Below, in pieces: positions 1,993 to 30,748 of a DNA stretch of 64,000 nucleotides (position 1 is the first letter of the stretch; each line of letters opens with the position of its first letter). The translations under genes were made by a program, and so were the position numbers. The notes beneath the pieces are model-generated. The model saw only the letters and a list, made by a program, of their open reading frames with translations. It searched no databases and was not told the origin of the DNA. Source of the DNA: Schmidtea polychroa. Taxonomy: Eukaryota. The DNA lies in the NCBI GenBank assembly GCA_044892525.1, contig CM097885.1:682001-746000 (forward strand), read 5' to 3'.

Positions 1993-2789
1993 CAATTAAA
2001 TTTATGTGAATAATAAAATATATATTGTGAATTATTTGACTTCGTTAATTAAAATATGTTTTATCATTTAATAATTCATTTGTCCAATTAATTTAGATAA
2101 TTAGTTTTAAGTAAGAATTATTATTTATCATGAAAACTTTGCTTTGTTTTGAAAAATTAATGCCCATTTTATTTTAAATTAACACAGCTTTATTTTATGA
2201 TAATTACTAATTAAAATTTTATTCAAATTGAAATATTATTGTTACAATTTACACTCTTGTTAGAATATATTAAATGTAAATGTAAAATAATAACAATAAA
2301 AAAATAATAATAATAATAAATAAATAAAAATTAAATTAAAAAAAAAATTAATTAAATAACGTAAGTAATTAAAATAAAATATTAATAAATAATTAATTAA
2401 TTAAATGTAATAAATTGAAAATTAACTAAAGTAATTAATTAAAACAAAAAACATAATAAAATAATTAATTAATAAATTTAAAAAAAAAATTAAATAACAT
2501 TAAAAAAAAAATAAATAGAAATGATTCTATTGACCTATATTTGATCTGGACATTGGGATGACCTTGAAAGTGTCCTGGAGTCTATATATACTACTAATTA
2601 TAATCATAATTTTCTTTAATTTAACCCTTTATTTACTTAATTTAGCCCTTGTTAGTAGATGGATTGGGCACCGCTGGCACAGGGCACCGCTAGCACAGTA
2701 CCCCCCCTCCCCCCTCCTTCCGTCGAAAAGATTTTCAAAAATATTCTAAGTCTAAAAGTACATTTTTTTTCAAGGTCAAATTTAAACAA

Positions 2790-4180
2790 AGACATATGAC
2801 TCATCAAGGTCATTGAAACAAAGACCATGACTCACAGTATGACTCATCAAAATTTTCAAGGTCATTTAAACAAAGACCATGACTCATCCTATGACTCACC
2901 AAGGTCATTTTCAAGGTCATATGATTCATACTATGACTCATCAAGGCCAAAAAAATTTTCTCAGGGTCATTTAAACAAAGACCATGACTTATCAAGGTCA
3001 TTTTCAAGGACATATGACTCATACTATGACTCATCAAGGTCATTTCCAAGGGCATATGACTCATACTATGACTCATCAAGGTCAAAAAATTTTCTCAAGG
3101 TCATTTAACAAAGTCCATGCCTCATCAAGTTTGTTTTCAAGGTCATATGACTCATAATATGACTCATCAAGGTCGTTGAAACAAAGCCAATGACTATAAT
3201 ATGACTCATCAAGGTCATTCTCAAGGTCGTATGACTCATAATATGACTCATCAAGGTCATTCTCAAGGTTGGATGACTCATACTATGACACATCAAGGTC
3301 ATTTTCAAGGTCATATGACTCATCCGATGAGGCATAAAAATTTTCAAGATCATTTAAACAAAGACCATGACTCATTCAAGGTCATTTTCAAGGTCATATG
3401 ACTCATTCAAGGTCATTTTCAAGGTCATATGACTCATCAAGGTCATTTTCAAGGTCATATGATTCATACTATGACTCGTCAAGGCCAAAAAAATTTTCTC
3501 AAGGTCATTTAAACAAAGACCATGAATTATCAAGGTCATTTTCAAGGGCATATGACTCATACTTTGACTCATCAAGGTCATTTCCAAGGTCATATGACCC
3601 ATACTATGACTCATCGAGGTCAAAAAAATTTTCTCAAGGTCATTTAACAAAGACCATGACTCATCAAGTTTGTTTTCAAGGTCATATGACTCATAATATG
3701 ACTCATCAAGGTCATTGAAACAAAAACCGTGACTATAATATGACTCATCAAGGTCATTCTCAAGGTCGTATGACTCATAATATGACTCATAAAGGTCATT
3801 CTCAAGGTTGGATGACTCATACTATGACACATCAAGGACATTTTCAAGGTCATATGACTCATCCGATGAGTCATAAAAATTTTCAAGGTCATTTAAACAA
3901 AGTCCATGACTCATTCAAGGACATTTTCAAGGTCATATGACTCATTCAAGGTCATTTTCAAGGTCATATGACTCATTCAAGGTCATTCTCAAGGTCATAT
4001 GACTCATACTATGACTCATAAAAATTTTCAAGGTCGTATGACTCATACTGAGACTCATCAAAATTTTCCAAGGTCATCTGAGTCATCTTATGACTCATCA
4101 AGGTCATTTTCAAGGTCACATGACTCATCCAAGGTCATTCTCAAGGTCACATGAGTCATCGCTATGAGTCATCAAGGTCA
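2790..4180. repeat. Complex tandem array of TGACTCA / TCAAGGTCA words in the left TIR of element 1
   Basis: Dozens of ATGACTCAT and TCAAGGTCA units with higher-order periodicity; source of the repetitive ORFs at 2810-3940. Confidence 0.95.
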
Positions 4181-4359
4181 TATTATTATTTTTAAAAATA
4201 TTATTATTTTTATTATTATTTTTAAAAAATATTATTATTTTTAATTTTTTCAAAGTTCCCGTCAACGAAAATTAATAATCGATATCTCATTTTAAAGATC
4301 AATCCAAGGCCTTTCGAATGAGCCATATATCTTGTTATTCAGATTACTATTTCTAAAGA

Positions 4360-4471
<112 letters not shown>

Positions 4472-4566
4472 CTATATACACCGAGTCTATATACTCCGAG
4501 TCTTTCCGACAAAATATTTTGTCCCCCTATGGGTAATGCTCACAAGGGTACTGGTCACGCTCAACA
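4472..4566 (-). promoter_or_regulatory. Conserved ~90-bp cassette, copy 1 (putative promoter)
   Basis: Minus strand reads TACCCTTG..TACCCATAGGGGGACAAAATATTTTGTCGGA..CTCGGAGTATATA; contains the perfect palindrome GACAAAATATTTTGTC (4508-4523). Confidence 0.5.
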
Positions 4567-5428
4567 AATCAGCAAATCAACAAAACAAACATTTATTTAA
4601 ACAATAAAATAATGTAAAATTAACAAAGGTAAACTAAATATTGATGTACTACTATTCGCAGCAATATTGTTTGAAAACAAACGGCAATACAAAAGTACTC
4701 ATCGATGACTCATTTATTTTTTGAAGAAAGACAATGACGCACCCATGGGATATATTATTTATTACTATCAATAGTATTAATATTATTATTATTAATATTA
4801 TTATTATTATTATTATTATCATCAAGTTTTAATAACCAAGGTAATTTAAACAAAGACCATGACTCAGTCGCTGAATCATCAAGGTCGTTCTATTTTTAGT
4901 AACAAAGACATCTATTTTTAGTAACATTTTGAATATATTTTTAGTAACATTTTTGATCCGATCATTGATCCGATGACTCGCCAAGGTCATTCTATTTTTA
5001 GTAACAAAGACATCTATTTTTGTTCCAGCGGTTTATTTTTGTTTAAATTATCGAATACGTAATAATTTAATTTTGTTTAAATTGTTAATAATAATATTTT
5101 TATTTTTTGTTTTAATTATCGAATACGTAATAATTTAATTTTGTTTAAATCGTTGATTATATAATAATATTTTTATTTTTTGTTTTAATTATCGAATACG
5201 TAATAATTTAATTTTGTTTAAATCGTTGATTATGTAATAATAACATGTTTTGTTTTAATTATCGATTACTCAATAATTTAATTTTGTTTAAATCGTTGAT
5301 TATGAAATATTTTTGGATTTAATTGTCGATTACGTAATAATTTAATTTATCATTATAATTGGGAAAGATATTACCGCTCGCGCGGAAAATGTTATTTTCA
5401 AAATTATTATTTTCGAAATTTTAATCAA

Positions 5429-5483
<55 letters not shown>

Positions 5484-5508
5484 AATGTTATTATTATTAG
5501 TATTAATC

Positions 5509-5600
5509 TATATAGTCCGAGTTTATCCGACAAAATATTGTGTCCCCCTATGTGTATTTGTAGAAAGGGTACTGGTCACATTCAACATGTCGCAAGGGTA
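5509..5600 (-). promoter_or_regulatory. Conserved cassette, copy 2
   Basis: Same consensus as copy 1; mirrored by 31456-31547. Confidence 0.5.
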
Positions 5601-5785
5601 TTAATATTATTATTATTATTATAACATTAATATAACTTCATTATTTTCAAGGTCATATTATTATTTTTCAAAATATTATTATTTTCAAGGTCATATTATT
5701 ATTTTTCAAAATATTATTATTTTCAAGGTCATATTATTATTTTTCAAAATATTATTATTTTCAAGGTCATATTATTATTTTTCAA

Positions 5786-6297
5786 AATATTATTATATTT
5801 TTCAAGGTCATATTATTATTTTTCAAAATATTATTATATTTTTCAAGATCATATTATTATTTTTCAAAATATTATTATTTTCAAGGTCATATTATTATTT
5901 TTCAAAATATTATTATATTTTTCAAGGTCATATTATTATTTTTCAAAATATTATTATATTTTTCAAGGTCATATTATTATTTTTCAAAATATTATTATTT
6001 CAAAGTCATATTATTATTTTATTTTAGTTTTGTTTAAATCGTTGATTATATGATAATATTTTTATTTTGGTTTTAATTATCGATTACTTAATAATTTTTT
6101 ATTTTTTTTAATTATCGATTACTTAATAATTTAATATTGTTTAAATCGTTAATTATATAATAATATTTTTTTTGTTTTAATTATCAATTATGTAATAATT
6201 TAATTTTGTTTAAATCGTTGATTGTATGATAATATTTTTATTTTTGTTTTAATTATCGATTACTTAATACCTTAATTTTGTTTAAATCGTTGATTAT
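5786..6297 (+). repeat. 512-bp direct repeat, left of the Polinton
   Basis: Identical by eye to 20656-21167 at constant offset 14870. Confidence 0.9.
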
Positions 6298-7271
6298 ATA
6301 TATACTCAACCAAAACAGCCCCCCAACAAAAACATGCCTCCAAATCACTTAAGCTATTAGAAAAACAACCTAAAACTTATACTTTTATAGTATTTTAACC
6401 CTATATTTTGAAAACAACCACCTTTAATGACTCTAACTGTTTTAATCTTTAAAGCCTCAAACTCAAAAGCTTCAAACTAAAAAGAGAATAGAAAAGAAAA
6501 TGGCATTATGAAAAAGTTAGAGGGCTATTTGATCTTTATCAGATTATTGATTTTAAATTATATAAATTAAAAAATAAATGAAAAATAGTAAAACTGCTCT
6601 GAGGGGACAGTGGTATTTTTTTTTTTTTTTTTTTAACTGTCCCCTCAACAGTTTTTTTTGATCCGGATCATTTTTTTTATTTATCAACCTCTTTCGTTTA
6701 TCGAATCTCTTCCAATATACAAGCTGGCCAGACTCATACATCAGAATCAATCCGATAATAGCAGCACACCTTATTATTCGCTTCTCGCTCGAATACGATT
6801 TCATCGGCGTTTTAAGTGTGCTGCTCGAAAGTACAAATGAATTCGAAAGCGAATTCGAAAGAGGTCCGAAAACAACTGAGAAATAAATGTGCACATTACC
6901 GGGATCGATCCGGGGGTGTTCGAAAGACAGGTGGCGATAATTACCGGTTCGCCACCATCACCCGTTTCAATATTTTTTTTTTCATATTTATGTTTAAAAA
7001 ATAATTAAATAATAAAAAAATAAAATAAAATAAAATAAATAAAATAAAATATACAAGTACTTTATAAATATAAGATACCCACACTATTTTCAATATTATT
7101 TTCAAATTTTTAATATTATTTTATGTTGAAAAAAAACTAACCTCAGATGTGATTTGAACCGCTAGCATTTTGAACCACTGTGTCAGTCTAGCCCACTGCG
7201 CCATCTAGGATTGGATTTTTTGTCATTTTTTAAATTTTTATTATAAAAAATGAATAATATAAATCTTAAAA
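6298..7271 (+). repeat. Left terminal inverted repeat of the Polinton (terminal AGTAGT missing)
   Basis: Imperfect reverse complement of 19634-20645. Confidence 0.9.
7129..7210 (-). ncRNA. Putative Pol III type-2 small RNA in the left TIR
   Basis: Minus strand: A box TGGCGCAGTGG (7203-7193), B box GGTTCAAATC (7160-7151), T8 terminator (7136-7129). Confidence 0.5.
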
Positions 7272-7286
7272 AAATTTTTTCTAAAA

Positions 7287-10200
7287 ATGAATTGTAATAT
7301 TTGCAATAAAGTTTTTAAAAATAAAACTGGATTAATTTCTCACTTAAAATCGAAAGCTCATTTATTAAAAGAAAATAATCTTAATGATACAAATTCAAAA
7401 CTTTGTCTTAAATGTAAAGGAAGATTTCTACATTCTGGATATAATAAACATTTTGAAAATTGTATCGGGAAAATTAGAGAAATATTTACATGTCCTCATT
7501 GTAACTTTTCAACAAAACTAAATTTCTATTATTTAGAACATATAAAAGAATGTAAAAATAAAAAACAAAATTCTGACGATGAGGAATGTCATTCAGAAGG
7601 AGAACCTGATCATGTTGAAAGAGAAAAATATAACTGGGATAATTTTAATCATATAGATGAATTTCAATTAAAAATTAATGGGCCTGCAACTCCTGGAGAA
7701 TATATAAATAAAAATAAAAAATATATTAAAAATTCTTTCACTGAAGCTTTAAAAAATTATAAACCGACAAGGTATAATGTTATAAAATATAAAATTATAA
7801 TCAAAGCAAAATACTGGCGAGGAGCAGAAGAAAAGACAACACCCTTAGATGTTGAAATTGGAATACCCTTTAAATATTTATTTTCAATTAAAGGATTTGA
7901 TAAAACCATCAAAGAAATAATTAAAGCAGCAGAAGCAAAACAAGAGGAAGTAGAAAATGAATTAGGAGATTCAAACTTAGTATTCAACTCTTTCCAAACT
8001 TTAGTGATTGATTATTGGAGAGGATTACCACCCAATCCTAAATCTTATATTCCTACACCCTTTAAATCTAAAAATGTTATAAATGTACAGAATAATGATA
8101 ACAAATGTTTCATCTGGTCAATACTTGCACATTTACATCCTCAAGCAACAAATCCCCAAAGAGTTTCAAAATACAAACAATATGAAAATGAATTAATATT
8201 TCCCAAAGGATTCAAACACCCAATGAAACTAGAAGACATTCCAGAATTTGAAAAATTAAATAATCTTAAACTTAATATTTATGAACATGTTATAGGGAAA
8301 GAAATTATTCCAATTTATATTTCAGATAGTGGAACCAAGGATAATGGAGCACAGGACAATGAGATATATCTTTTAATCTTGGAACAAGAAAATAATCAAC
8401 ATTATGTTTTAATAAAAAACTTTCAAGCTTTTACATCTCCAGAGAATCCAACTAGTGGAGGAGGAACATGTAAAAGATGTCTTTATTATACAACAACTAA
8501 AAACTCTATGATTAAACATACAAGATTTTGTGAAAAAGATGATCCAGCTTTAATTAAAATGCCTAATAATCCCAAGATGTATTTTAAAAACTTTTCAAAT
8601 TTACTACAAACAGTTGGAGTTCTTTATGGTGACTTTGAATCTATAAACCATAAACAAGATTTGGTTTATCAATATTTAAAAATAATAGAAAAAAATAAAC
8701 TCATGGATTTATGGAACTCCTCAGTAGAGAAGATGAAACCAGAGAGGATGAAAGCCTTTCTAAGAAAAAGAAATAAACCTAATAGTGTTAAAAAAACTAA
8801 ACAATTACCATCTGCTTATAAATTATTATTTAAAAGTAATTATCCTGAACTCACAGAATCTAGAGAATATTCAATTCTAGGAGGTACCCCTGAAGAAGTC
8901 TTGAATCATTTTACTAAAAATATAAATGATCTAGAACATGAAATATTTAAAATATTAAAAACAAAGTATCCTCAAAATATTTCTAATCAACAACAACAAG
9001 AATATGAAAATACTTCCAACTGTTGGATGTGTAAACAGAATATTCTTCCTGATGAAAAAGTTATAGATCATGATCATTTAAAAAAGGAAAATAATTATCG
9101 AGGAGCAGCTCATAAAAATTGCAATCTTAATTGCCATACTCCTAAATTTATACCTGTTATATTTCATAATCTTTTTGGATATGACATACATCTATTTATT
9201 AAACATTTAGCAGCAAATGCTAAAAACTCTTTCAAAGTTATCGGCTTAACAAAAGAAAAATATAAATCAGTTGAATATGGGAAATTAAAATTTATAGACT
9301 CGTTAAACTTTCTTCAAATGTCTCTAGATGGAATAGCTAAAACAATGAAACCAGAAGATTTTAAAATCACTCGAGAATTCTTGGAAAAAAATAATATTCC
9401 TCTAGAAGAATATCCTACATGTTTAGCAAAAGGAATATATCCTTATGACTATGTTGACTCGTTTGAAAGATATAATGAAACAAGTCTTCCTAGCCAAGAA
9501 GATTTCTATTCACAACTTCAAAAAAATCATATTACAAATCAAGAATATTCTCGAGCAAATAAAATGTGGGAATTATTCAAGTGTAAAACTTTAGGAGAAT
9601 ATACAAGTATGTATTTATCCTTGGATGTTTATATTCTAGCAGATTGCTTTGAAGAATTTACAAAATCTTTTGTTCTTAAACCCTATAATTATATAACTGC
9701 ACCCTCTTTAGCTTGGGATACTATGTTATATACCATTTGGACTTCAAATATAGAAGATGCTGATAAAATTATAGATCTTTTAACTAACCTCGATATGTTT
9801 AACCAAATTAAAACAAACATTAGAGGAGGAGTCTCTTCAGTAATGGGGAATAGAGAAATAAAAGCTAGAAATGCAATAACTACTAGCCGAAGACTATCTA
9901 AACACCCTGATGATCCATATATGAAAATTAACAATGAGGAATTAAAAGAATTATTAGAAACAATGAAAAATCCTATATTTATACTTTATATAGATGCAAC
10001 AGCTTTATATTCAGGAATTATGACTCAATATTTACCAATGAGTGATTTCACTGAAATAGAGAACCCAACAGATGACCTTATGAAAGAAATACTTTCAACA
10101 TCGAAAGATTCTCCAATAGGTTACTTTATAGAATGTGACCTCGACTATCCAGATGATATAAAATCAGGAACAAGATATTTTCCTTTAGCTCCCATAAGAA

Positions 10201-11567
10201 GAAAGATTGATATCAACGAACTTTCTGAATGGCAAATCTCACAAGATAAACCTCCAACAATGAAACTTCTTTGTGATCAAACAGATCGAAGGTTTTATCT
10301 TTGTCACTATAGACTCCTCCAATTTTATCTCTCACGAGGAATGATATTAAAAAAAGTTCATAGTGTCATAAGATTTAAACAAGCTCCATTCATGAAAGCT
10401 TTTATCGAGGAGAACATTAGGTGTCGAAACATTGCAAAAAGAGAAGGTAACCTTTTTAAAGATAATAATTATAAACTTTTAAACAATTCAGTCTTTGGGA
10501 AAACAATGGAGAATGTTGATAAATATACTCATATTGAACTCCTAACAAATACTACCAAAGATATTAAGCGTTATAATCGCATGCTAGGAAAGCCTACATT
10601 TAAAAACGCACAAGTATTTTCTGAAAATCTTACTGCAGTAGAATTAAAAAATTATGAGAAAACATATAACAAACCAATATTTATAGGGTTTACAATTTTA
10701 GAACTTTCAAAATTACAAATGTATGAAACATATTATAACATCTTACAACCTATATACGGAGCAAATATATCAATGCATGCAATGGATACAGATTCAATGT
10801 TTTTAACAATAAGAACTCATGATTTACAAAAAGATATGAAAGAAAATCCTATACTTTCAAATTTAATAAATTCATCTGGAGAACTATTTTCGTTTAAAGA
10901 TGAAAAACCTTTTACTCCTATAGAAAATGGAATATTTATTCGTGCTAAACAATATTCATACGAAACATTTAGAAACCCTGAATTTATAACTAGATCATTT
11001 ATATTTAAAACTCCAGAAACAGAAGAAACCATTACACATAGATATCCTATATTTCCTAAAGAAGAAAAACCTGTAAAGGATAACAGATGTAAAGGAATAC
11101 AGAGAGTGGTGGCAAAGAATCTTTCTCATCAAGATTATATAGATACATTGAATCCAAATCATAAAGATAAAATTGATGAAATACATCAACTTAAAAGTGA
11201 AAACCATGATATTCACTTGATAGAATCTCAAAAAGTATCATTATCAAATTATGATGATAAAAGATTCATACTAAGTGATTTAAAGACAACTCTACCTATT
11301 GGAAATAATTTAATCCCTATAATAAAAAATCTAGAAAAGTTGAATAAGTTATATGATACAAAGATTACTGATCTTGATATTTATAATGTTGAAATTATTT
11401 ATCCCGAGAGAGAAATCGAGAAACCTTTATATTCTCAAGTTTTTAATCCTATATGTTTAGAACTTAAATATTTTAATACTGATCCTGAATATATAAAAGG
11501 TCTAAGTGATAAAGAATTTAAAGATCATAAATTAATGATTCATAGGTTGGCTTTCAACCATAACTGA
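7287..11567 (+). CDS. POLB: Protein-primed family B DNA polymerase with N-terminal C2H2 zinc fingers and endonuclease VII-like domain
   Basis: 1426-aa intact ORF; YGDFES exonuclease, DHDH..YRGAAH..CN, KGIYPY, YIDATALY, KLLNNSVFGK, MDTDS, YDDKRF. Confidence 0.97.
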   Translation: MNCNICNKVFKNKTGLISHLKSKAHLLKENNLNDTNSKLCLKCKGRFLHSGYNKHFENCIGKIREIFTCPHCNFSTKLNFYYLEHIKECKNKKQNSDDEECHSEGEPDHVEREKYNWDNFNHIDEFQLKINGPATPGEYINKNKKYIKNSFTEALKNYKPTRYNVIKYKIIIKAKYWRGAEEKTTPLDVEIGIPFKYLFSIKGFDKTIKEIIKAAEAKQEEVENELGDSNLVFNSFQTLVIDYWRGLPPNPKSYIPTPFKSKNVINVQNNDNKCFIWSILAHLHPQATNPQRVSKYKQYENELIFPKGFKHPMKLEDIPEFEKLNNLKLNIYEHVIGKEIIPIYISDSGTKDNGAQDNEIYLLILEQENNQHYVLIKNFQAFTSPENPTSGGGTCKRCLYYTTTKNSMIKHTRFCEKDDPALIKMPNNPKMYFKNFSNLLQTVGVLYGDFESINHKQDLVYQYLKIIEKNKLMDLWNSSVEKMKPERMKAFLRKRNKPNSVKKTKQLPSAYKLLFKSNYPELTESREYSILGGTPEEVLNHFTKNINDLEHEIFKILKTKYPQNISNQQQQEYENTSNCWMCKQNILPDEKVIDHDHLKKENNYRGAAHKNCNLNCHTPKFIPVIFHNLFGYDIHLFIKHLAANAKNSFKVIGLTKEKYKSVEYGKLKFIDSLNFLQMSLDGIAKTMKPEDFKITREFLEKNNIPLEEYPTCLAKGIYPYDYVDSFERYNETSLPSQEDFYSQLQKNHITNQEYSRANKMWELFKCKTLGEYTSMYLSLDVYILADCFEEFTKSFVLKPYNYITAPSLAWDTMLYTIWTSNIEDADKIIDLLTNLDMFNQIKTNIRGGVSSVMGNREIKARNAITTSRRLSKHPDDPYMKINNEELKELLETMKNPIFILYIDATALYSGIMTQYLPMSDFTEIENPTDDLMKEILSTSKDSPIGYFIECDLDYPDDIKSGTRYFPLAPIRRKIDINELSEWQISQDKPPTMKLLCDQTDRRFYLCHYRLLQFYLSRGMILKKVHSVIRFKQAPFMKAFIEENIRCRNIAKREGNLFKDNNYKLLNNSVFGKTMENVDKYTHIELLTNTTKDIKRYNRMLGKPTFKNAQVFSENLTAVELKNYEKTYNKPIFIGFTILELSKLQMYETYYNILQPIYGANISMHAMDTDSMFLTIRTHDLQKDMKENPILSNLINSSGELFSFKDEKPFTPIENGIFIRAKQYSYETFRNPEFITRSFIFKTPETEETITHRYPIFPKEEKPVKDNRCKGIQRVVAKNLSHQDYIDTLNPNHKDKIDEIHQLKSENHDIHLIESQKVSLSNYDDKRFILSDLKTTLPIGNNLIPIIKNLEKLNKLYDTKITDLDIYNVEIIYPEREIEKPLYSQVFNPICLELKYFNTDPEYIKGLSDKEFKDHKLMIHRLAFNHN

Positions 11568-11661
11568 AACCAACGATATTTAATTTTTTAATAATAAAAT
11601 GTCGACAATTAATTTAAGCAACTATAGCAACCTGATCTACTTTTTTAAAAATACACCCATT

Positions 11662-12273
11662 TTATAAGTAAGAATTCTTTAACCATTTTTCTCGAGATGT
11701 TTTTTTATTACTTATAACATTAGCCACCATGCCCTCCCTTTTTAATCTTATAACCTCATTCTTTATATCTTGTATTATTTGATTTGATTTCATTATTTCT
11801 TCGTCTGTCAGGATTCCATCTTCCAAAGCTTTTAATTGAAATAAAAATAATTTAGAGATTCCTAATTCTATTGATAAACAAACTTCTCTATATAAACTTT
11901 TCTTTTTAGAAGTATAAGATAATGAAACTATTTCAGTTAAGAAACCATCAGCCACAGAAATACTTCCAAGTATTACAGGTGCAAGAGTAACAACTGGTAA
12001 AGTTATGGGTAAAATAACTGTTAATATTGCAGATGCAAATCCTAAAGAATAACCTATAACTTTTAAAACTGTATTCCCTTTATTCCATCTATTTTTAATT
12101 TTTTTATAATGCTTTAATAAATCTTGTAAATGTAAGGTTTCTGATTTAAATTCTTTTACTCTCATAATTTCAAGTTCTGTGGGAGCCGAGGCCTTGGAAC
12201 CTTTGTGACCTTCGGAATAATATCCTGATGATCTCAATTCGGGGTAAATTTTTTCTTCTCTTACTTCTTCCAT
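11662..12273 (-). CDS. Polinton accessory membrane-active protein (PW/gasderminX-like)
   Basis: N-terminal IYPEL and ASAP motifs; hydrophobic hairpin VIGYSLGFASAILTVILPITLPVVTLAPVILGSISVA; located between pPolB and virion genes. Confidence 0.6.
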   Translation of the reverse strand: MEEVREEKIYPELRSSGYYSEGHKGSKASAPTELEIMRVKEFKSETLHLQDLLKHYKKIKNRWNKGNTVLKVIGYSLGFASAILTVILPITLPVVTLAPVILGSISVADGFLTEIVSLSYTSKKKSLYREVCLSIELGISKLFLFQLKALEDGILTDEEIMKSNQIIQDIKNEVIRLKREGMVANVISNKKTSREKWLKNSYL

Positions 12274-12281
12274 TTTAATAA

Positions 12282-13292
12282 TTAAAAAAATAAGACTTTA
12301 TTCTTCTGAGCACCATCTGGTACCAATACTCGGATATCAAAAGAAACTCTTGTTGAGAGGATATCTTTATACAATTCTCTCAATGCTTTACGAACTTCAT
12401 CAACATCAACCTTTTTTTCATAAAATATTAAATCTATATATTGTACAAGTGAACTAGAAAAATGAATATTCTTAGTTTTAACTTTATGTAGTCCATGTGA
12501 ATGAGTATTAACATACCAATCTCCGTGTGGTAAATCATAACTAGTCATTATAACATCACCCTTTTCAAGCTTACTATTATAATCACATTTCACAAACCAT
12601 TTCATTCTTTCATTATCATCATCAAACAAAAAGAAATAAGGATCAATAATTTTTACAACCATAAAAACACCCCATTCTTTACTGTTTGTTGTTATTAAAC
12701 TTGGTTCTATAAAATGTTTATATGTATGGGGTAATAATGTTTTATTCTGTTCTAATTCAGCAGCTCTTTTTCTAATACTATGTGTGGTGTTAATGTGTGT
12801 TCCATGAGACTCTAAATTTGAAATTCTTTTATTAAATGATGTAATCATCTCATTTATTATATTATATATTGCATTAAAAATAGTATTCATAATTTGTTTA
12901 TCTTTAGAATTTAATATAGCAGTATTTAACTTTACAACTTGTTCAGTTAACAGACTTTGTAACTTGTCAAATTTATCATTAAATCGTTGTTCGATATTAT
13001 TAAGCTTTGATTCCATTGAATCAAATTTTGTTGTTAATGAACTTTCAATTCTTGTTGTTGTTAAATCAGTATATTTTTTAACACCATCTACATATTTCTT
13101 ATTAACTGCATCAGCTTCATCAGTTGGAAAAGATAATTCTTTTATCTTGTGTCCATTTAAAATTAAATCACCCTTCATTGAATCACCTCTTTCATTAATA
13201 TATTTATTTTCTGTTAAAGTTAATATTTCTTCTGTATTAAACCCTGTTTTTATTGTTCCACCACCTCTATTACATGGAATATAAGAACTCAT
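12282..13292 (-). CDS. Putative fibre/spike-like virion protein
   Basis: GDSMKGDLILNGHKIKELSFPTDEADAVNKKYVD resembles the tail-fibre-type motif common in Polinton proteins; followed by a coiled coil and a beta-rich C-terminus; adjacent to the penton gene. Confidence 0.5.
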   Translation of the reverse strand: MSSYIPCNRGGGTIKTGFNTEEILTLTENKYINERGDSMKGDLILNGHKIKELSFPTDEADAVNKKYVDGVKKYTDLTTTRIESSLTTKFDSMESKLNNIEQRFNDKFDKLQSLLTEQVVKLNTAILNSKDKQIMNTIFNAIYNIINEMITSFNKRISNLESHGTHINTTHSIRKRAAELEQNKTLLPHTYKHFIEPSLITTNSKEWGVFMVVKIIDPYFFLFDDDNERMKWFVKCDYNSKLEKGDVIMTSYDLPHGDWYVNTHSHGLHKVKTKNIHFSSSLVQYIDLIFYEKKVDVDEVRKALRELYKDILSTRVSFDIRVLVPDGAQKNKVLFF

Positions 13293-13332
13293 TTATTAAT
13301 AATTTAAAATGGACGGAGTCCCCTGAGAGGAA

Positions 13333-14097
13333 CTAAACCTGTTTCAAATGTAAATACATTGAAATCTCTTCTCCATTAAAATCAATCAATTCTCCTTCTT
13401 GATTAAGAATTTTAAAATTAATATCCATTATATATTTTCTACATAAAGGTAAATAATTTGGAGGATTCATTCTTTCAACTATTTTATATCCCATAGGAAC
13501 TGTGTTTGAGGGAAAGGAATATAAAACATTTGTTTGTTTACCATTATTATAAGAACCTGTTATACAATCGCAATGAATATTTATTGTGTTTGTATTTATT
13601 ATTTTTATAATATGTTCTGATGTTATTATTTTATCTTCTTTTATTGTTATATCCATAGGTTTAAATCCTAAAACTGTGTGAAAGAAACAATTATCTAAAA
13701 AACTAATTTTTATATTCTTCAAAGTCATTACACATTTTGAAGTTGGTATATCCATTTTAATTTTAATACCTTCATTTGTTTTTTTAGAAAGTATATCATT
13801 TAAATCTTTTATCTCATATGCCCCAGGTTCTATTGTTATAATTTCTGGTTTATGCCCATCACGAGTTTGAATAGTAAATTTATTATTATCTTTAGTTATA
13901 TTAAAAATAGTATTATAAGCACAAAACCATAATAGCCCCAATTCATAATTTAAATTTTGATCTAATTTAATTGAATCTTGAAAGTTTATAGTAAACTCTG
14001 ATTCTTTTGAATTTATAGATAAAGTTCTTGAATATTTATCTTACATTATGTTTACCATTTTTTTTAAATTATCTTCCGGAGGGTTGTGAAGCTCCAT
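13333..14097 (-). pseudogene. Minor capsid protein (penton) with one in-frame nonsense codon
   Basis: NTIFNI..NNKF, IEPGAYEI, INIHCDCITGSY, LIDFNGEEIS motifs; the frame extends up to ATG 14097 with a single TAA at 14043-14041. Confidence 0.8.
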
Positions 14098-14130
14098 TTC
14101 TTTAGTAGTAAATTCATATAGTAAAAATCC

Positions 14131-14595
14131 TTATAGTAGAGATTCTAGATCATTATAAATTTCTTGAATTATAGATTCAAAATCCTGCGTATGCCCCTTT
14201 CCCTCTCCCTTATTCAATCTATACAAAACATATAAACTTAAAATACCACATATTTTAGTATTCAAAGGTTGAACTTGTAAAGAGTTAAAAGTATAACCAT
14301 TTGGGGAATCAATCGGAGAACCCCTCAAGAGATAATCTTCAACTTCTTTAGTAGGTTTAATCCCAAAAGAATCAAAGTAGATAGACTTCTTATATATACA
14401 AACCCAATGAGATCCTTTTTCATTTGAATTTTGATAATTGATTATTATATTCAGGGGACTCTCCAGACTTGATAATTCATCATTCATTAATATTTTAATT
14501 TTTAAATTTAAATAATTTGCATAATCTTTTAAATCAAAATTTGTTTTTGCATTTATTCCAAATGTTTTTAAAAAATCTAATATTGAAGGAGTCAT
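14131..14595 (-). CDS. PRO: Adenain-like cysteine (maturation) protease
   Basis: GSHWVC..YFDSFG..QVQ......CG catalytic H/D/Q/C pattern. Confidence 0.93.
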   Translation of the reverse strand: MTPSILDFLKTFGINAKTNFDLKDYANYLNLKIKILMNDELSSLESPLNIIINYQNSNEKGSHWVCIYKKSIYFDSFGIKPTKEVEDYLLRGSPIDSPNGYTFNSLQVQPLNTKICGILSLYVLYRLNKGEGKGHTQDFESIIQEIYNDLESLL

Positions 14596-14617
14596 TTTGT
14601 ATTTTAAAACTTCGTAT

Positions 14618-15499
14618 TTATAACTTCGTATACTTATTAAATTTATCTTTGGAAATTATTCCTTGTTTTAACAAATCATTAGAAATCTTTAAAATATCAG
14701 AATCTAAATTATTATGTCCTGCTTTCCTTGCAGCTAATAGTTTTCTTAATTCAATAAAAATATTGATGGGATTTGGTTTACCACCTTCACTAATTAATCC
14801 CTCTCCCTCTGTAACAACATAACCCTTTTCATTTTTATTTAAATAATTCTTTAAATCTTGAATATATTTTGCTTTAGAACTAGCTTTTATTAATCTTATT
14901 AAATTTAAATATTTTTTAATTTCTTCAACATCATCTGAAGAATATCCACAAAGTAATCTATAAAAATCATCTGTAAATTCAAAGTCTAAATATTCATTAT
15001 TATAAACATTTTGTGAATGAATACGTGATTTATTTTCTGAATTTGAATATAAATTAAAGTTTTGTTTATTAATTGTTATTATTTGATATCCTTCAGTATT
15101 AGTATTAAATGTGGGTCTAATTGAAGGAGGTAAATCATCTCTAATTTTAGGATCAACTTTAAGAGGTTTTGTTTTTAAAAACATTTCTTCTTCTTCCACA
15201 TTAGAAATTCTTCTGCGTTTTCTTTGATTTCTTTCAGGATGGTTTTCACTGGATTCTTTTTCTTTATCCTGCCACTCTAGTTCTTTTATTTTTTGTTTTT
15301 TATCTTCTAACTCTTTAAATTTTGCTTGCTCATTGAAATCTTCCAACTCTTTTATAGCTTTAATTGTTGGCCCCTGTTGTTGTGTTATTACCTCATTTAA
15401 TATTATAGATTCAGCATGTTGAGTTGTATCTTTTTTATTATATTTATCTTGTTCTGATTGTAATTTTTTTAAAAGTGCTAATCTTTCTTCATATACCAT
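14618..15499 (-). CDS. Polinton accessory/core protein of unknown function
   Basis: 293-aa intact ORF; RKRRR basic patch; C-terminal LLAARKAGHNN..LLKQGII segment typical of Polinton proteins. Confidence 0.65.
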   Translation of the reverse strand: MVYEERLALLKKLQSEQDKYNKKDTTQHAESIILNEVITQQQGPTIKAIKELEDFNEQAKFKELEDKKQKIKELEWQDKEKESSENHPERNQRKRRRISNVEEEEMFLKTKPLKVDPKIRDDLPPSIRPTFNTNTEGYQIITINKQNFNLYSNSENKSRIHSQNVYNNEYLDFEFTDDFYRLLCGYSSDDVEEIKKYLNLIRLIKASSKAKYIQDLKNYLNKNEKGYVVTEGEGLISEGGKPNPINIFIELRKLLAARKAGHNNLDSDILKISNDLLKQGIISKDKFNKYTKL

Positions 15500-15521
15500 T
15501 TTAATGGTATCAAAAATGGTA

Positions 15522-16100
15522 TCATAGTTCGAAGGGCTTCAAGTATAATCGTTTACCATTTTTAGTTTTACAAAGGCATCCATTCTTTAAAGATTTACAT
15601 ATTTTTTTTAAATCTTCTTTATCTTTTGAAGATAGAGATTCAGATGTAGAAATTTGATTTTTTAAAAAATCATTTAAACCTCTACCTTTATAAGGATCAA
15701 GATAGAGACCTTTGCCCTGAGACTTTTGCCGACTCCCCTCATATGGATTAAGATAGAGACCCTTTCCAACGGACACTCCCCCTTTAGCTTGCCCTACCTT
15801 CTTCATTGAATCGATTTCAGTTTGTAGTTTTTCTTTTTCTAGGTCTGTCTTTTGAGATTCTTTAGCTTTTTGAACTGTAGTTGCAATTCCTCCAGCTATT
15901 CCAGCAGCACCTGATAAACCAGCAATGATTGCAGGTATTAAAGCAGCTAATGGAAGAATGCCACCTTCTTTAGCTTCGTGGAGCTTCGCTCTAACTTGTT
16001 CTTTTACATGTTTTCCAATAAAATATTTTTTACCATCAATTACTACTGATTTATTTTTATTTGAATTTATTAATTCTTGCAAAGATTCTTCAGTTGTCAT
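15522..16100 (-). CDS. Putative virion core precursor with membrane-active peptide and protease-site repeats
   Basis: True ATG likely 16100 (MTTEES); EGG-ILPLAALIPAIIAGLSGAAGIAGGIAT hydrophobic stretch; repeated GKG-LYLxPY. Confidence 0.65.
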   Translation of the reverse strand: MTTEESLQELINSNKNKSVVIDGKKYFIGKHVKEQVRAKLHEAKEGGILPLAALIPAIIAGLSGAAGIAGGIATTVQKAKESQKTDLEKEKLQTEIDSMKKVGQAKGGVSVGKGLYLNPYEGSRQKSQGKGLYLDPYKGRGLNDFLKNQISTSESLSSKDKEDLKKICKSLKNGCLCKTKNGKRLYLKPFEL

Positions 16101-16116
16101 TTTATAATAAATAAAA

Positions 16117-16908
16117 ATGGATACTTGGAAACCAATTTTAAATAGACATAAGAGTAAATTCAATAATAAAGTATTTCCTGATAATTTTAGATTATTAATT
16201 GTTGGTTCTTCTGGATGTGGAAAGAATGTACTTGTTTTGAGAATGTTACTTGAAGATGATTTTTTAGATTATAATAATTTAATCTTTTATTCTACAACCA
16301 TAAATCAACCAGAATTACAACTTTTGAAATGTGGATTTGAAAATAAATTAACTAAAAAAGCAATAATTGATATTTTTAAAAATCAACATAGGTGTCCTGA
16401 AGAAGTTTTTCAACCTTGTGATATGGTTGATTGGTATAAGGAAAAGATTTTAGAATCAGATATTAGTAATAAAAATGATTATATTTGTGAAGAAGGGCAG
16501 GAGGCAATTCAAGTTTTATTCTCTAATAAACCTGAAGATGTTTTACATTGTGATTTACTTCCTAAAGATAAAAAGAATCTAGTTATATTTGATGATGTTG
16601 TTAATATGAAAAATCAAGAGATTCAAAAGAGTTACTTTACACGAGGTCGACATAATAATTGTAATGTTATTTATATATCTCAAACATATTATGCTTTAGA
16701 TAAAAATTCAATAAGAAATAATTCCAATTGTTTTATATTTTTTAAATTAGATCGCCGTGATAAGAATATGATTTATAATGATTTATTTTCAAATGTTGAA
16801 CCTGATAAGAATATGTTTGATATGTTTGTTGATAATCATTGGAAAGAAAAATATAATTATATTTATTTGGATAGAGAAGAAGCTGAAATATGGAAAAGTT
16901 TGTTTTAA
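16117..16908 (+). CDS. A32/FtsK-like genome packaging ATPase
   Basis: Walker A GSSGCGK, Walker B LVIFDD, RGRH arginine finger, YISQ, IRNNS. Confidence 0.95.
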   Translation: MDTWKPILNRHKSKFNNKVFPDNFRLLIVGSSGCGKNVLVLRMLLEDDFLDYNNLIFYSTTINQPELQLLKCGFENKLTKKAIIDIFKNQHRCPEEVFQPCDMVDWYKEKILESDISNKNDYICEEGQEAIQVLFSNKPEDVLHCDLLPKDKKNLVIFDDVVNMKNQEIQKSYFTRGRHNNCNVIYISQTYYALDKNSIRNNSNCFIFFKLDRRDKNMIYNDLFSNVEPDKNMFDMFVDNHWKEKYNYIYLDREEAEIWKSLF

Positions 16909-16923
16909 CTTGTTTTCTATAGT

Positions 16924-18333
16924 TCAGAAATCTGTTTTCTGTAGTTCATTATTATAAAATCTACCTAATATTTTTTCATTATTTAAATCAAAGATGCTAT
17001 ATGTTATTGGAGTTGTATAATTTATTTTATTTATAATAAAAATTTCATTTGTCCATTTTGCTGTGAATCCTTTTTCAAATTTATTTTTATATTTAAATAT
17101 TCTTACTCGGTCACCAATTTTAAACTTTGGTTTTTCAATAACATCATTTTCAATATTTACCACTTTAATGGTTTCAGGCTTCATGGAAGCATTTAAAGGT
17201 GTTAATTTTATAGAACTATGTACATCATTATTATATTCATTTACAATCTTTTGTAACAATTCATTGTTCCATTTTTGTTTTCCAATAGCAGTAAAATATT
17301 TCCACATTTTATTTTTTAATGTTCTATTTAATCTTTCAACTACGACTGCTTTTCCTTCGTTTTCTGTTGAATATAATTTAATATCATTTTCATTTAAAAA
17401 CTTTGTAAAAGCTTTGTTATAAAATTCTGTTCCTTTATCACACCATAAATATTTTGGGATTCTTTGATTTTCTTCAAATATATTTTCAAATGCTTCTGTA
17501 ATAGAATATCCTGTTTTATTTTCTAAACATCTTGCAAAAGCAAATCTTGTATATAAATCTATTACAGTTAAAATTATTTTATATTTTTCAGGGTCTGATG
17601 ATTTGGGCATAAAGACTAAATCTGCAGACCATGTTTGATCTTTTTCATGTACTTGAACTTTTAAATATTTTTTATTTTTTCTAAATTCATGGTGTAATTC
17701 CTTTGCATATTTTATTTCTGATTCTGTTGGGGTTTGTAAACTAGTCTTGGCTGTACTCTCGAGGGATCTTTCAATGTCTGCTTGTTCGATAATCTTTTTA
17801 TAAGCAACATCTTTTGCTTTCCTAGGAAGTCTTGCACCCATGGTGATCGGACTGTGTCCTAAGCCTATGAAAATCTTACCTTTCATTGCTAATTTAACTA
17901 GAGCTCTTTGAATCTTTTCTTGGGTTGATGGATTTTGGATACTATTTAAATCATGTATTAAATTCACATCTGCAACATGTCTATCTCTAAGATTTGTTGA
18001 ATTGTATGCAATGTCATGTTTTAAAGCTGCTTGATCAATTCTATTTATTGGTTCTTCTCCTTGTTTGGGATTATTATTTTCATCTAATCTAATATCTAAT
18101 CTTGTTCCTGGTCCGGTGTAGTTGTGTTTAAATAAATGTCTTTCACCTGGATATTTTTCTGTAGTAAAAGGTTTTAATATTGAAGATGTTGTTTTTGAAG
18201 ATTGCAAATCGCCTCCAGCTCGTGGAATTAGGTCACCTACTGTATGTTTTTTAGTTTTAAGATGGCTTGCTTTATGATGTCTTGTAACTTGACAATTACA
18301 AGTTTCACATCTCCAATATTTATTTAAAGACAT
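16924..18333 (-). CDS. INT: Retroviral-type (rve) integrase with N-terminal zinc finger and parvovirus-type PLA2 domain
   Basis: WSADL, LTVID, CDKGTEF, ERLNRTLK DDE core; GDRVRI..FEKG..W C-terminus; HNYTGPGT..IDQAALKHDIAY. Confidence 0.95.
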   Translation of the reverse strand: MSLNKYWRCETCNCQVTRHHKASHLKTKKHTVGDLIPRAGGDLQSSKTTSSILKPFTTEKYPGERHLFKHNYTGPGTRLDIRLDENNNPKQGEEPINRIDQAALKHDIAYNSTNLRDRHVADVNLIHDLNSIQNPSTQEKIQRALVKLAMKGKIFIGLGHSPITMGARLPRKAKDVAYKKIIEQADIERSLESTAKTSLQTPTESEIKYAKELHHEFRKNKKYLKVQVHEKDQTWSADLVFMPKSSDPEKYKIILTVIDLYTRFAFARCLENKTGYSITEAFENIFEENQRIPKYLWCDKGTEFYNKAFTKFLNENDIKLYSTENEGKAVVVERLNRTLKNKMWKYFTAIGKQKWNNELLQKIVNEYNNDVHSSIKLTPLNASMKPETIKVVNIENDVIEKPKFKIGDRVRIFKYKNKFEKGFTAKWTNEIFIINKINYTTPITYSIFDLNNEKILGRFYNNELQKTDF

Positions 18334-18371
18334 TTTAAAATGTTAAAATATCAGGGATTATATCAAGAATC

Positions 18372-19655
18372 TCACCTAACATTTTCAATAATTGAAATCT
18401 TTCCACCATATAATTTCATTTCTATTTTCTTTTCTTCTAATATTAATGTATATACTTTAGCTTTAAAATTAGAATCCTTTGTTACATGAAGTGTAACATC
18501 AACATTATTTATGGCTAGGCGATCATCTTGATCTGAAACATTTATACAAAATATAGAATATAAATTTTTGAAATCTTCTAAACTTAATTGCGGTTCAACT
18601 TTGAAATCATAACATGTTTCAATATAATTTAGATATGGGAATATGTTTTCATTATTTTCAATATTAAATTCCATTCTATTTATTGGATAATAAGAACTAT
18701 TTAATTGAATTTGGATTGTTTTTAAATTATCATCCCCAATCTTTTGAATAAATAGATTGTTATTTTTTTGGAAAGATGAATCTGTTTCTTTGAATCCAAT
18801 CAAGATATATCTTGGTCGGTATGCTAAATTTGCTACCTTTATAGAATATGTTGAACCCTCTGTCATACTAAATTCACTACAGATTATATTTAAATAATTT
18901 ACATTTATAGACTTGTTGGAATTTAATCTTTCAAGGAGTTTAATCTCAGAATGTGGGTTTAATGTCCATTCAGGTATATGTAATTCAAGTGTTGATAATT
19001 TTAATTTAGCTTTTGTATCTACAGCTCCATAGAACAATCTTTTATCACCTTCTACTCTATTACAGATGAATTCTATAAAAACATTATGAAGTCTACGATT
19101 ATAGTTTTGAAGGAATCCAAACAAGTGTTTTAATTCAAAATAACCTTCAAATTTTTTAGATTTATAAAGTTCAGCTCTTTTATAGTAACCATAATTTATA
19201 TCTAAACCATCTTTATCTAAATCTCCTTTATTAACATCAGGAATCCAGCCTGTTAATTCACCATATTCATTTTTATAATCACAACCAGTCAAAATAAAAT
19301 TTAACATTGTAGAATATACTCCCGGATGTAAAACAGTTTCAATTTCTGATGATCCTAGTTTTAATCTCATATTGGATAATAAATTTGGAAAGAAATTATT
19401 TTCTAGGGTTATATCTTTGTTTGCTTCAATTTCTAATTCGATTTTATAATATAATTTGGCATTACAAATATCTATAGGGTTTGATGTTTGAAGAGATTGA
19501 AAAACTATATCACCCCTACGATTTAAGTTTGCAATAGATCCTGAAGTTGGGGAGATTTTAAGTACATCGTTTTTCTTGATTTCATGAGTAAATTCTTTAT
19601 TATAATCAAGATTTAATTTATTTTTTTCTTGAATTTTAAGATTTATATTATTCAT
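18372..19655 (-). CDS. Major capsid protein (double jelly-roll, hexon-like)
   Basis: 427-aa beta-rich ORF with FELKHLFGF, LELHIP, RPRYILIGF, QLNSSYYP, YSIFCINVS motifs; Polinton context. Confidence 0.85.
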   Translation of the reverse strand: MNNINLKIQEKNKLNLDYNKEFTHEIKKNDVLKISPTSGSIANLNRRGDIVFQSLQTSNPIDICNAKLYYKIELEIEANKDITLENNFFPNLLSNMRLKLGSSEIETVLHPGVYSTMLNFILTGCDYKNEYGELTGWIPDVNKGDLDKDGLDINYGYYKRAELYKSKKFEGYFELKHLFGFLQNYNRRLHNVFIEFICNRVEGDKRLFYGAVDTKAKLKLSTLELHIPEWTLNPHSEIKLLERLNSNKSINVNYLNIICSEFSMTEGSTYSIKVANLAYRPRYILIGFKETDSSFQKNNNLFIQKIGDDNLKTIQIQLNSSYYPINRMEFNIENNENIFPYLNYIETCYDFKVEPQLSLEDFKNLYSIFCINVSDQDDRLAINNVDVTLHVTKDSNFKAKVYTLILEEKKIEMKLYGGKISIIENVR

Positions 19656-20655
19656 TTTTATAATAAAAAATTAAAAAATGACAAAAATCCAATCCTAGAT
19701 AGCGCAGTGAGAATAGACTGGCACAGTGGTTCAAATAGATAGCGGTTCAAATCCTAACTACGGTTAGTTTTTTTTCAACATAAAATAATATTAAAAATTT
19801 GAAAATAATAGTGTGGGTATCTTAGATTTATAAAGCAGTTGTATATTTTATTTATTTTATTTTTTTATTAATTAATTAATTTTTAAACATAAATATGAAA
19901 AAAAAAATATTGAAACGGGTGTGGTGGCGAACCGGTAATTATCACCACCAGTCTTTCGAACACCCCTGGATCGATTCTATAATGTGCACATTTATTTCTC
20001 AGTTGTTTTCGGACCTCTTTCGGATTCACTTTCGAATTCATTTGTACTTTCGAGCAGCACGCTTAAAACGCCGATGAAATCGTATTCGAGCGAGAAGCGA
20101 ATAATAAGGTGTGCTGCTATTATCGAATTGATTCTGATGTATGAGTCTGGCCAGCTTGTATATTGGAAGAGATTTGATAAACGAAAGAGGTTGAATAAAA
20201 AAATGATCCGGATCAAAAAAACTGTTGAGAGGACAGTGAAAAAAAAAAAAAATACCACTGTCCTCTCAGAGCAGTTTTACTATTTCATAAAATTTTTTAT
20301 TCTTTTTCAATTTTTTAAGTTTTATATAATTTAAAATCAATAATCTGATAAAGACCAACTCTAGAGTTTGATTACGATCAAAACAGTGCCTCAAGTAGTG
20401 CGTTTATATCCCTAACCAAAATAGCCCTCTAACTTTTTCTTTTCTATTCTCTTTATGTTTTTAGTTTGAAGCTTTTGAGTTTGAGGCTTTAAAGATTAAA
20501 ACAGTTAGGGGTATTAAGGGTGGTTGTTTTCAAAAAATATAGGGTTAAAATACTATAAAAGTATAAGTTTTAGGTTGTTTTTCTAATGGTTTAGGCGTAA
20601 TGGAGGTATGTTTTGTTGGGAGGGCTGTTTTGGTTAGGGATATAAACGCACTACT
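19634..20655 (-). repeat. Right terminal inverted repeat of the Polinton
   Basis: Reverse complement of the left TIR; ends TATAAACGCACTACT. Confidence 0.92.
19693..19775 (+). ncRNA. Putative Pol III type-2 small RNA in the right TIR
   Basis: A box TAGCGCAGTGA (19700-19710), B box GGTTCAAATCC (19744-19754), T8 run (19768-19775). Confidence 0.5.
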
Positions 20656-21167
20656 AATATTATTATATTTTTCAAGGTCATATTATTATTTTTCAAAATA
20701 TTATTATATTTTTCAAGATCATATTATTATTTTTCAAAATATTATTATTTTCAAGGTCATATTATTATTTTTCAAAATATTATTATATTTTTCAAGGTCA
20801 TATTATTATTTTTCAAAATATTATTATATTTTTCAAGGTCATATTATTATTTTTCAAAATATTATTATTTCAAAGTCATATTATTATTTTATTTTAGTTT
20901 TGTTTAAATCGTTGATTATATGATAATATTTTTATTTTGGTTTTAATTATCGATTACTTAATAATTTTTTATTTTTTTTAATTATCGATTACTTAATAAT
21001 TTAATATTGTTTAAATCGTTAATTATATAATAATATTTTTTTTGTTTTAATTATCAATTATGTAATAATTTAATTTTGTTTAAATCGTTGATTGTATGAT
21101 AATATTTTTATTTTTGTTTTAATTATCGATTACTTAATACCTTAATTTTGTTTAAATCGTTGATTAT
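20656..21167 (+). repeat. 512-bp direct repeat, right of the Polinton
   Basis: Begins immediately after ACTACT; matches 5786-6297. Confidence 0.9.
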
Positions 21168-21373
21168 GCAATAATAATTTTTGTTTAAATTATCAATTAT
21201 GTAATAATTTAATTTTGTTTAAATCTTTGATTATATTATTTTTTTTGGTTTAATTATCGATTACCCAATAATTTAATTTATCATTATTATTGGGAAAGAT
21301 ATTAATGCCCGCGCGGAAGATGTTATTTTCAAAATTATTATTTTCAAAGTTTTAATCAATATTATTATTATTA

Positions 21374-21444
<71 letters not shown>

Positions 21445-21935
21445 TCCAAAGTTATTTTGAAAGTTATTATGAAAATTCTTCTTCTTATTATTATTATTAT
21501 AATTTGCAAATATTCATAAAACCTAATTTCTACGTCCATTTCATGCTTTTCAGCATTTTCATGATTATTTCAGGAACATTTTCATCAAATATTTTTCAAA
21601 GTATTATTTTCAAAGAATTATTTTCAAAGAATTATTATTATTATTTTTTATTATTATTATTTTTATTATTATTTGCAAAGTTCTAATTATTATTTTAATT
21701 TAGAAGTTTCATTATTATTATTTACTTAAATATTTATAAAACTTAATTTCTACGTCAATTACATGATTTTCAACATTTTCATCATTTGCATGATTATTTT
21801 AATAATTTTCTACATTTTCAATATTTTCACGATTTTCAACATTTTCATGATTATTTCAGGAACTTTTCATCGAATATTTTTCAAAGTATTATTTTCAAAG
21901 ATTTATTTTCAAATTATTTTCAAAGTTTTTATCAA

Positions 21936-21996
<61 letters not shown>

Positions 21997-22263
21997 GGTA
22001 AAGAAAAATCTAAAATATGGTTTACACACACAACCCATCAACCATTATTATTATTATTATCAATATTAAAAACATAAAATATTTTTACACACACACATGC
22101 ACAATCCATTAAACATTATTATTATTAACGCAAATATTAGTCAAAAACATAAAATATTTTTACACACACACACAACCCATTAACAATTATTATCAATATT
22201 AGTGAAAACCTAAAATATTTTCTACACACATATACAACCCTTTGAACTTTATTATTATTATTA

Positions 22264-22313
<50 letters not shown>

Positions 22314-22473
22314 ATTAGTCAAAAACTTAAAATAATTTTTACACACTAAGTTATGGGGTAGAGAATTATTATATGTTTGCAGTATTCTGTGTTTGCCTTT
22401 ACAGGAAATTGTCAATAAGGAGTGATAATTTTATACATACATTCTATATACACATACCTTTTTAAAATGGATG

Positions 22474-30208: not shown

Positions 30209-30270
<62 letters not shown>

Positions 30271-30271
30271 T

Positions 30272-30360
<89 letters not shown>

Positions 30361-30578: not shown

Positions 30579-30748
<170 letters not shown>

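Follow-up and report, generated by a model that had tools for sequence, protein, structure and literature searches.

Host factors have a role in replication at viral origins and ITRs, through NFI and Oct-1 in the adenoviruses and through the AP-1 sites of the polyomavirus enhancer. Landais 2006 is cited for the baculovirus hrs with their CRE/TRE clusters. These clusters are described as enhancers and putative origins, the activity of which correlates with the CRE/TRE count (PMC13513840, PMC3230853). The same two papers ascribe to the hrs a core of a 30-bp imperfect palindrome, binding by IE-1, a predominance of CRE sites and a dispersed location. In polyomavirus, enhancer duplications raise both transcription and replication (PMC7601649). 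Another baculovirus repeat, which has a 29-bp unit and is not an hr, is found in the alphabaculoviruses DapuNPV and OpMNPV; its consensus has been published, and section 7 of the paper gives it neither a transcription factor reading nor a function (PMC4599791). Among mobile elements, Polintons (Mavericks) and their non-autonomous derivatives are described as having a 6-bp target-site duplication (TSD), ends that start with AG and long inverted arms (PMC8097293, PMC6431247, PMC8502044). The Galileo/Foldback elements, which belong to the P superfamily, have internally repetitive TIRs in which the repeat number differs between the arms, and the repeats are proposed transposase sites (PMC3573991).

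The array described here is located in a 64,000-nucleotide stretch of Schmidtea polychroa DNA (the window). In our reading it may work like a viral repeat that is an enhancer or origin, yet it is neither an hr nor part of an autonomous Polinton. With the hrs it shares a richness in host bZIP sites and the clustering of TREs (43 in the left array), but it has short stems only and no 30-bp palindromic unit, it combines the TRE with a nuclear-receptor word, and it is terminal in a gene-less element. The 29-bp alphabaculovirus repeat is similar in being a tandem array, in an animal DNA virus, with one TGACTCA and one CAAGGTCA per unit. It differs in its fixed monomer and constant linkers, in the use of GCAAGGTCA rather than TCAAGGTCA, in the lack of a Sox-like word, and in its internal position at a single locus of a circular genome. 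The element that carries the array has the TSD, the AG-initiated ends and the long inverted arms of the Polintons, but no pPolB, integrase, ATPase or capsid gene; it ends in AGTAGA instead of (AGT)2 and is largely palindromic. It resembles Galileo in its repetitive TIRs with unequal repeat numbers, whereas its words match host transcription factor consensus sequences. Viral origins and ITRs are comparable in having host factor sites beside the start of replication and in their tandem amplification; they contain few sites, with a demonstrated function, whereas the array contains dozens, of putative function.

Structure of the outer element

The array is carried by a gene-less foldback element at 2654..33839 (the outer element), the ends of which read AGTAGATGG...CCATCTACT. 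The 6-bp TSD typical of Polintons/Mavericks, here CTTGTT, is present on both sides (2648..2653 and 33840..33845, + strand). A paralogous site at 35286-35419, which is empty, bears out these borders. The end AGTAGA agrees with (AGT)2 in five of six bases, by a list of motifs, (AGT)2 and (AG)3, drawn from vertebrate elements (PMC8097293). When an inserted Polinton and one copy of the 512-bp repeat that flanks it are discounted, the net length is 16,316 bp, and for 71% of this sequence there is an inverted counterpart. The centre of the fold is formed by an inner inverted repeat at 24642..27141 (24642-25465 / 26297-27141). The longest ATG-initiated ORF of the outer element has 109 aa and is of low complexity, and a tblastn search of the outer element's own sequence with the proteins of the inserted Polinton gave no match. 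The outer element lacks genes for pPolB, integrase, ATPase and capsid and is not an autonomous Polinton/Maverick.

The left array occupies 2770..4180 (+ strand), slightly more than the 2790-4180 for which the words were counted, and starts 117 bp from the left end. It is composed of ATGASTCAT, TCAAGGTCA and AACAAAG words separated by variable linkers. The right, mirror array is at 32919..33706 (- strand) and starts 134 bp from the right end. A tandem duplication of about 538 bp (2887..3963, + strand; copies 2887-3424 and 3425-3963) is confined to the left arm. Two isolated, degenerate array-like units are found in the interior of the left arm (4836..4995, + strand), with mirror copies near 32000-32140. 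The earlier note had described the array as a TIR at both ends of an element. The mirror arrays bear this out, but the TIR is not that of a gene-bearing Polinton. Because the TIR belongs to the gene-less outer element, there are no genes within that element on which the array could act as an enhancer. No coding Polinton with AGTAGATGG ends is present in the window as a helper for these ends, and the two Polinton families of the window end differently.

A dispersed box of about 90 bp with a 16-bp palindrome is placed symmetrically on both arms of the outer element and is also present in the neighbouring foldback (+ strand at 4488, 5506, 22466-22474 and 24422; - strand at 27437, 29368, 31550, 32483 and 44248).

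The inserted Polinton

The outer element is interrupted by a Polinton of another family (6298..20655). This inner element has the complete Polinton/Maverick gene set according to Pfam: a protein-primed DNA polymerase B with an N-terminal C2H2 finger (7263..11564, + strand; PF03175, E 2.8e-12), a packaging ATPase (16111..16905, + strand; PF04665, E 9.9e-09), an rve integrase (PF00665), and a double-jelly-roll major capsid protein (18375..19670, - strand; PF21738, E 1.1e-24; 17 homologues). The integrase shares a single stop-to-stop frame with a PLA2-like domain (16927..18342, - strand; PF08398), whereas adintovirus PLA2X is described as a separate gene (PMC8502044). The right end of the inner element is intact and reads AGTAGTGCG; the left end lacks its first ~15 bases. 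A 512-bp direct repeat, 100% identical (5786-6297 / 20656-21167), flanks the inner element in place of a 6-bp TSD, so that it has neither two intact AGTAGT ends nor the duplication expected with them. We read the 512-bp flanks and the clipped end as a recent insertion of the repair or recombination type, or as an assembly join. A second, inverted copy of the terminal 36 bases of the inner Polinton is located 260 bp inside its right end (20394-20429).

The TIRs of the inner Polinton (~6298-7271 / 19634-20655) contain no AP-1, CRE, NR5A, ERR, NR4A, ROR or Sox site of the motif panel described below. Since the inner Polinton is intact without these sites, they are not needed by every Polinton of this locus. 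The possibility that the array is the TIR of the gene-bearing Polinton was rejected, as the latter has its own TIRs and ends, which are free of the sites.

Word content of the array and of the minisatellite

According to exact word counts, 2790-4180 contains 43 TGA[CG]TCA, 36 of them as ATGACTCAT and 3 as ATGAGTCAT, as well as 36 TCAAGGTCA (40 when counted as CAAGGTCA), 5 TTTAAACAAAG and 9 AACAAAG. Exact words make up 715 of the 1391 bases (51%), and the proposal that the array is built largely of two words, TGASTCA and TCAAGGTCA, is thus confirmed. The mirror array (32919-33706, - strand) has 23 AP-1 words, 25 TCAAGGTCA and 3 TTTAAACAAAG. One outer element thereby carries about 140 exact sites: 66 AP-1 and 61 TCAAGGTCA in the two arrays and 14 in one minisatellite pair. 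The two words also agree with the named consensus sites, as the earlier note had it: the TRE is TGACTCA (PMC13513840) and the Ftz-f1 consensus is PyCAAGGPyCPu (PMC3630131), of which 2790-4180 contains 46 matches. An SF-1 element is reported to be bound by a flatworm FTZ-F1 (PMC8673669), and Nr5a2 to bind a motif within a SINE subtype (10.1101/2022.05.17.492379).

The predicted enrichment over shuffled arrays is large. In 1000 dinucleotide shuffles of 2790-4180 the AP-1 count had a mean of 0.53 and a maximum of 4, and TCAAGGTCA a mean of 0.13 and a maximum of 2. This excess demonstrates repetition and not selection, because shuffling removes the repeat structure. A fairer control is a panel of 44 animal transcription factor motifs. 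These cover 58% of the array, and the coverage is 0-20% in the 15 other repeat tracts of the window, which include the derived minisatellite. The chance that both of two random words contain a panel site is about 0.0005-0.001, although the finding was chosen out of a very large scan, in which a one-in-a-thousand coincidence is expected somewhere.

The words are recombined with many different linkers, and there is no fixed monomer. When the words are anchored on a part of their sequence, the edges of the conserved blocks coincide with the edges of the motifs. With TGAC as the anchor (n=70), conservation is 93-96% at those positions of ATGACTCAT that are not part of the anchor; it drops to 73% immediately upstream of the word and to 54% immediately downstream. 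With AAGG as the anchor (n=84), conservation is 85-99% at the remaining positions of TCAAGGTCAT and falls to 50-51% on both sides.

An AT-rich minisatellite with a 38-41-bp unit (5640..6020, + strand) contains 8 TCAAGGTCA; it has a direct copy with 4 words (20656-20890) and a mirror copy with 6 (31179-31420). The claim that TCAAGGTCA is its only GC-containing word holds for G and not entirely for C: in 5645-6000 all 17 G are inside TCAAGGTCA or its single-change variants, and 18 of the 27 C are in the word as well, but the other 9 C correspond to TTTTCAAAATATT, a sister half-unit that occurs 9 times. The last word of the array is followed by an AT-rich tail (4172-4245) which is similar to the unit, and for this reason the minisatellite is probably not an independent origin of TCAAGGTCA.

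Two further interpretations of the array were discarded. As a coding sequence it would give a peptide rich in Tyr, Asp, Ser and Arg, but the phase of the words shifts 14 times out of 42 in the left array and 11 out of 22 in the right one, and the longest ORF has 106 aa. A structured RNA finds no Rfam match in 2500-34000. The folding of the array DNA is weak to modest (z -2.84), with short stems only in the 501 nt folded and a nearly unstructured centroid. A scan for bacterial promoters and terminators was empty and is irrelevant here.

Substitutions in the words

The earlier note had asked whether substitutions avoid the two cores, and took an even spread over motif and spacer, with neither accessibility nor binding, to speak against its inference. 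The spread of recent changes is even, as they strike words and linkers alike (p 0.26-0.83). The two left duplicates differ from each other at 14 of 308 positions in words and at 9 of 228 in linkers (p 0.83); the figures are 17 of 505 and 14 of 278 between the arms (p 0.26), and 25 of 836 and 12 of 288 in a three-way comparison (p 0.34). Between the arms the array has diverged by 31/783 (4.0%), as against 13/949 (1.4%) in the non-array stretches tested (p 0.001). The same breaking change recurs between the arms at several units of the array. The present copy, interrupted by another Polinton, appears to be decaying neutrally. An even spread of changes is what is expected of a dead inserted copy, and older variation is therefore the better test.

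The table of variants comprises 64 word sites, with 8 dropped for want of an ortholog in the other arm. A variant was counted as keeping the consensus when TGASTCA or PyCAAGGPyCPu (PMC3630131) is retained. This is so for 9 of the 14 variants common to both arms and for 5 of the 25 private ones (Fisher p 0.013), in a comparison for which the permitted set was taken from the literature consensus after the variant spectrum had been seen. A hand count by word from the same table gives 8 of 11 shared and 7 of 25 private (p 0.025), where the neutral expectation is 16% for the nuclear-receptor word and 25% for the AP-1 word. Four of the shared changes are C>G at the centre of the AP-1 word, the sole core change that retains TGASTCA, and C/G exchanges are absent from the 37 private variants. 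The shared variants are not independent, as unit duplication may have multiplied as few as one or two events into the four changes of C>G, and likewise into the four of A>G, and three shared variant words are broken. The interpretation given in the earlier note is supported in part.

The same words elsewhere

The window also contains the decayed remains of a second Polinton-like family, which has both TCAAGGTCA and ATATAGGTCA no more than about 60 bp from its AGTAG end (2530-2595, - strand; 1112-1181, - strand; 57225-57290, + strand). At one of these three ends TCAAGGTCA lacks one base. Some 20 bp beyond TCAAGGTCA stands AAATATAGGTCA, which we take to be ROR/Rev-erb-like, and both boxes are retained in a copy of 77% identity.

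Scans of viral contigs returned 5 stretches with the three-word pattern and 17 with a second arrangement. In each scan, the only array with multiple matches is one locus of a 132-kb baculovirus (L004), the contig of which has Pfam matches to Baculo_F, PP31, FGF, SOD and dUTPase. Its repeat has a 29-bp unit, contains 15 TGASTCA and 15 CAAGGTCA, and is located between fgf and a DUF1247 gene, upstream of fgf (4940-5640 of L004, - strand). It matches in consensus and position the non-hr repeat given for DapuNPV and OpMNPV in section 7 and Table 1 of PMC4599791. Two control patterns, run on the viral contigs, had one single match each, a weak null. When 596 Gb of prokaryote genomes were scanned with the word pattern itself, there were 14 matches, all single, and a small cluster (4 + 3 words) was present at one of them.

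From the metagenomes, 119 of about 170 stretches with the pattern were taken in. Compact dispersed clusters of the form CAAGGTCA-TGAGTCA-CAAGGTCA, on eukaryote-like contigs, account for 59 of the 119 matches (L006-L124). At least three of both words are present in 8 of the 119, and these include true minisatellites of both words on eukaryote-like contigs (L065:1-350, L112:300-760, L084:535-875 and L099:300-423). Polinton proteins had no match at the 119 metagenome loci, including those near the two-word minisatellites. This evidence can be read in two directions, since eukaryote-like DNA contains the pair repeatedly, yet the nuclear-receptor word is common in repeats. A scan for three CAAGGTCA, from which 122 of about 720 stretches were taken, found the word too common to be informative.

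Searches for relatives of the element itself were largely empty. An exact 19-mer had 0 matches in the viral contigs, and a capsid alignment pattern had 80 there, none of which was confirmed. The terminal 18-mer had 6 matches, all ending at 18 bases, as expected by chance, and comparison of the TIR with 124 loci gave nothing beyond one repeat-like match of 88 bp. No report of an AP-1/nuclear-receptor array in Polinton TIRs was found in the literature within the scope of the search, which covered few subscription journals and not Repbase Reports. No relevant planarian report was among the matches listed.

Possible function of the array

The explanation that we tentatively favour, at somewhat less than an even chance, is that the array is a subterminal cluster of AP-1 (bZIP) and NR5A/ERR consensus matches which was selected in an active family for the opening of the ends and for copying driven by a helper. 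Host bZIP proteins and monomeric nuclear receptors would bind the terminal array and, in responsive cells, hold the termini open; the open termini would let the integrase and protein-primed polymerase of a helper Polinton act, by excision or by copying. The observed basis comprises the words and their place at 117-134 bp from either end, a lack of genes, the TSD, the consensus-keeping shared variants and the word pair of the baculovirus. Since the element has no genes on which the array could act, it would most parsimoniously benefit at its ends. We infer that the host, an animal and probably a flatworm, possesses such factors and that these bind the array; the explanation also presupposes that the ends are opened by the binding and that there is a helper whose ends match. 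Little is known about what activates Polintons in animal cells, and an array at the ends that matches two well-studied families of host factors dozens of times would be a testable handle on their activation. If the explanation is correct, cis-regulation has been selected in an element without genes. A wider version, which we regard as speculative and unlikely, is that unrelated DNA parasites of animals, a gene-less Polinton satellite and an alphabaculovirus, converged on a tandem module of AP-1 and NR5A/FTZ-F1 sites. The satellite would then use the module as a replication licence gated by host signals, so that copying is timed to wounding or developmental state, with an edge over a helper without such ends. 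The array also offers a transcription factor reading of the published and unexplained baculovirus repeat.

The array could also be an inherited enhancer. It would then drive the early genes of an autonomous Polinton that has these ends and is the parent of the gene-less derivative, by which it is carried along. The motif edges, shared variants and panel coverage suit this as well as they suit the opening of ends, the baculovirus repeat stands between two genes and upstream of fgf, and tandem enhancer duplications in polyomavirus raise early transcription and replicative activity (PMC7601649). We nevertheless hold it to be improbable, given that the window contains no coding parent with these ends and does contain an intact Polinton free of the sites, and that the word was re-amplified 3 kb inside a gene-less arm. 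About the neutral alternative we are also doubtful. By this account the array is a neutral or self-propagating satellite of words that resemble motifs by chance. Slippage and unequal exchange would have multiplied them, possibly with the aid of short ATGAC/GTCAT hairpins or of a repeat-destabilising host protein, and the element would gain nothing from it. It accommodates the even spread of recent substitutions, the faster divergence of the array than of other arm sequence, the arm-specific duplications, the abundance of other satellites in the outer element, the modest folding (z -2.84) and the similar two-word minisatellites on non-viral, eukaryote-like contigs (L065, L112, L084, L099). It does not account for the retention of the consensus by shared variants, for conserved edges that are motif edges, for a panel coverage of 58% where other tracts have at most 20%, or for the recurrence of the words near the ends of a second Polinton-like family. 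Were the array neutral, it would still be a good case of satellites that mimic enhancers.

The subterminal position on both arms would also suit secondary sites for a protein encoded by an element, either the integrase of a helper or the zinc finger of a terminal protein or polymerase, which would read the TGAC/GTCA core shared by both words. In Galileo/Foldback a role as secondary transposase sites has been suggested for the tandem repeats of the TIRs (PMC3573991), and the pPolB of the inner Polinton has an N-terminal C2H2 finger. Such a protein would not explain why three different words match a host consensus in full, why the AP-1 centre has C>G variants or why the same pair is present in a baculovirus, and we find it quite unlikely. 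The reading given the least weight, as highly improbable, is one in which many copies titrate AP-1 and NR5A or regulate neighbouring host genes. The earlier note had named a sponge and an enhancer cluster among the possible roles. The approximately 140 exact sites per element agree with titration in number, but nothing specifically supports a sponge, this copy is disrupted by an insertion and decays without constraint, and no host gene was found among the ORFs of the window that were examined.

Neighbouring sequences

Twenty of the 24 sequencing runs listed contain the stretch or a part of it, and no RNA run is among those listed. The named hAT homologues listed are all from animals, and animal phyla dominate most of the nearest Atlas clusters, which identifies the host as an animal; base composition suggests a planarian. 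The outer element is nested within one arm of another small foldback (2596-35419). The adjoining region, 35536-62257, is a large nested palindromic element with relics of hAT and Polinton elements, the arms of which (40356-44187 / 45590-49397) are 99% identical.
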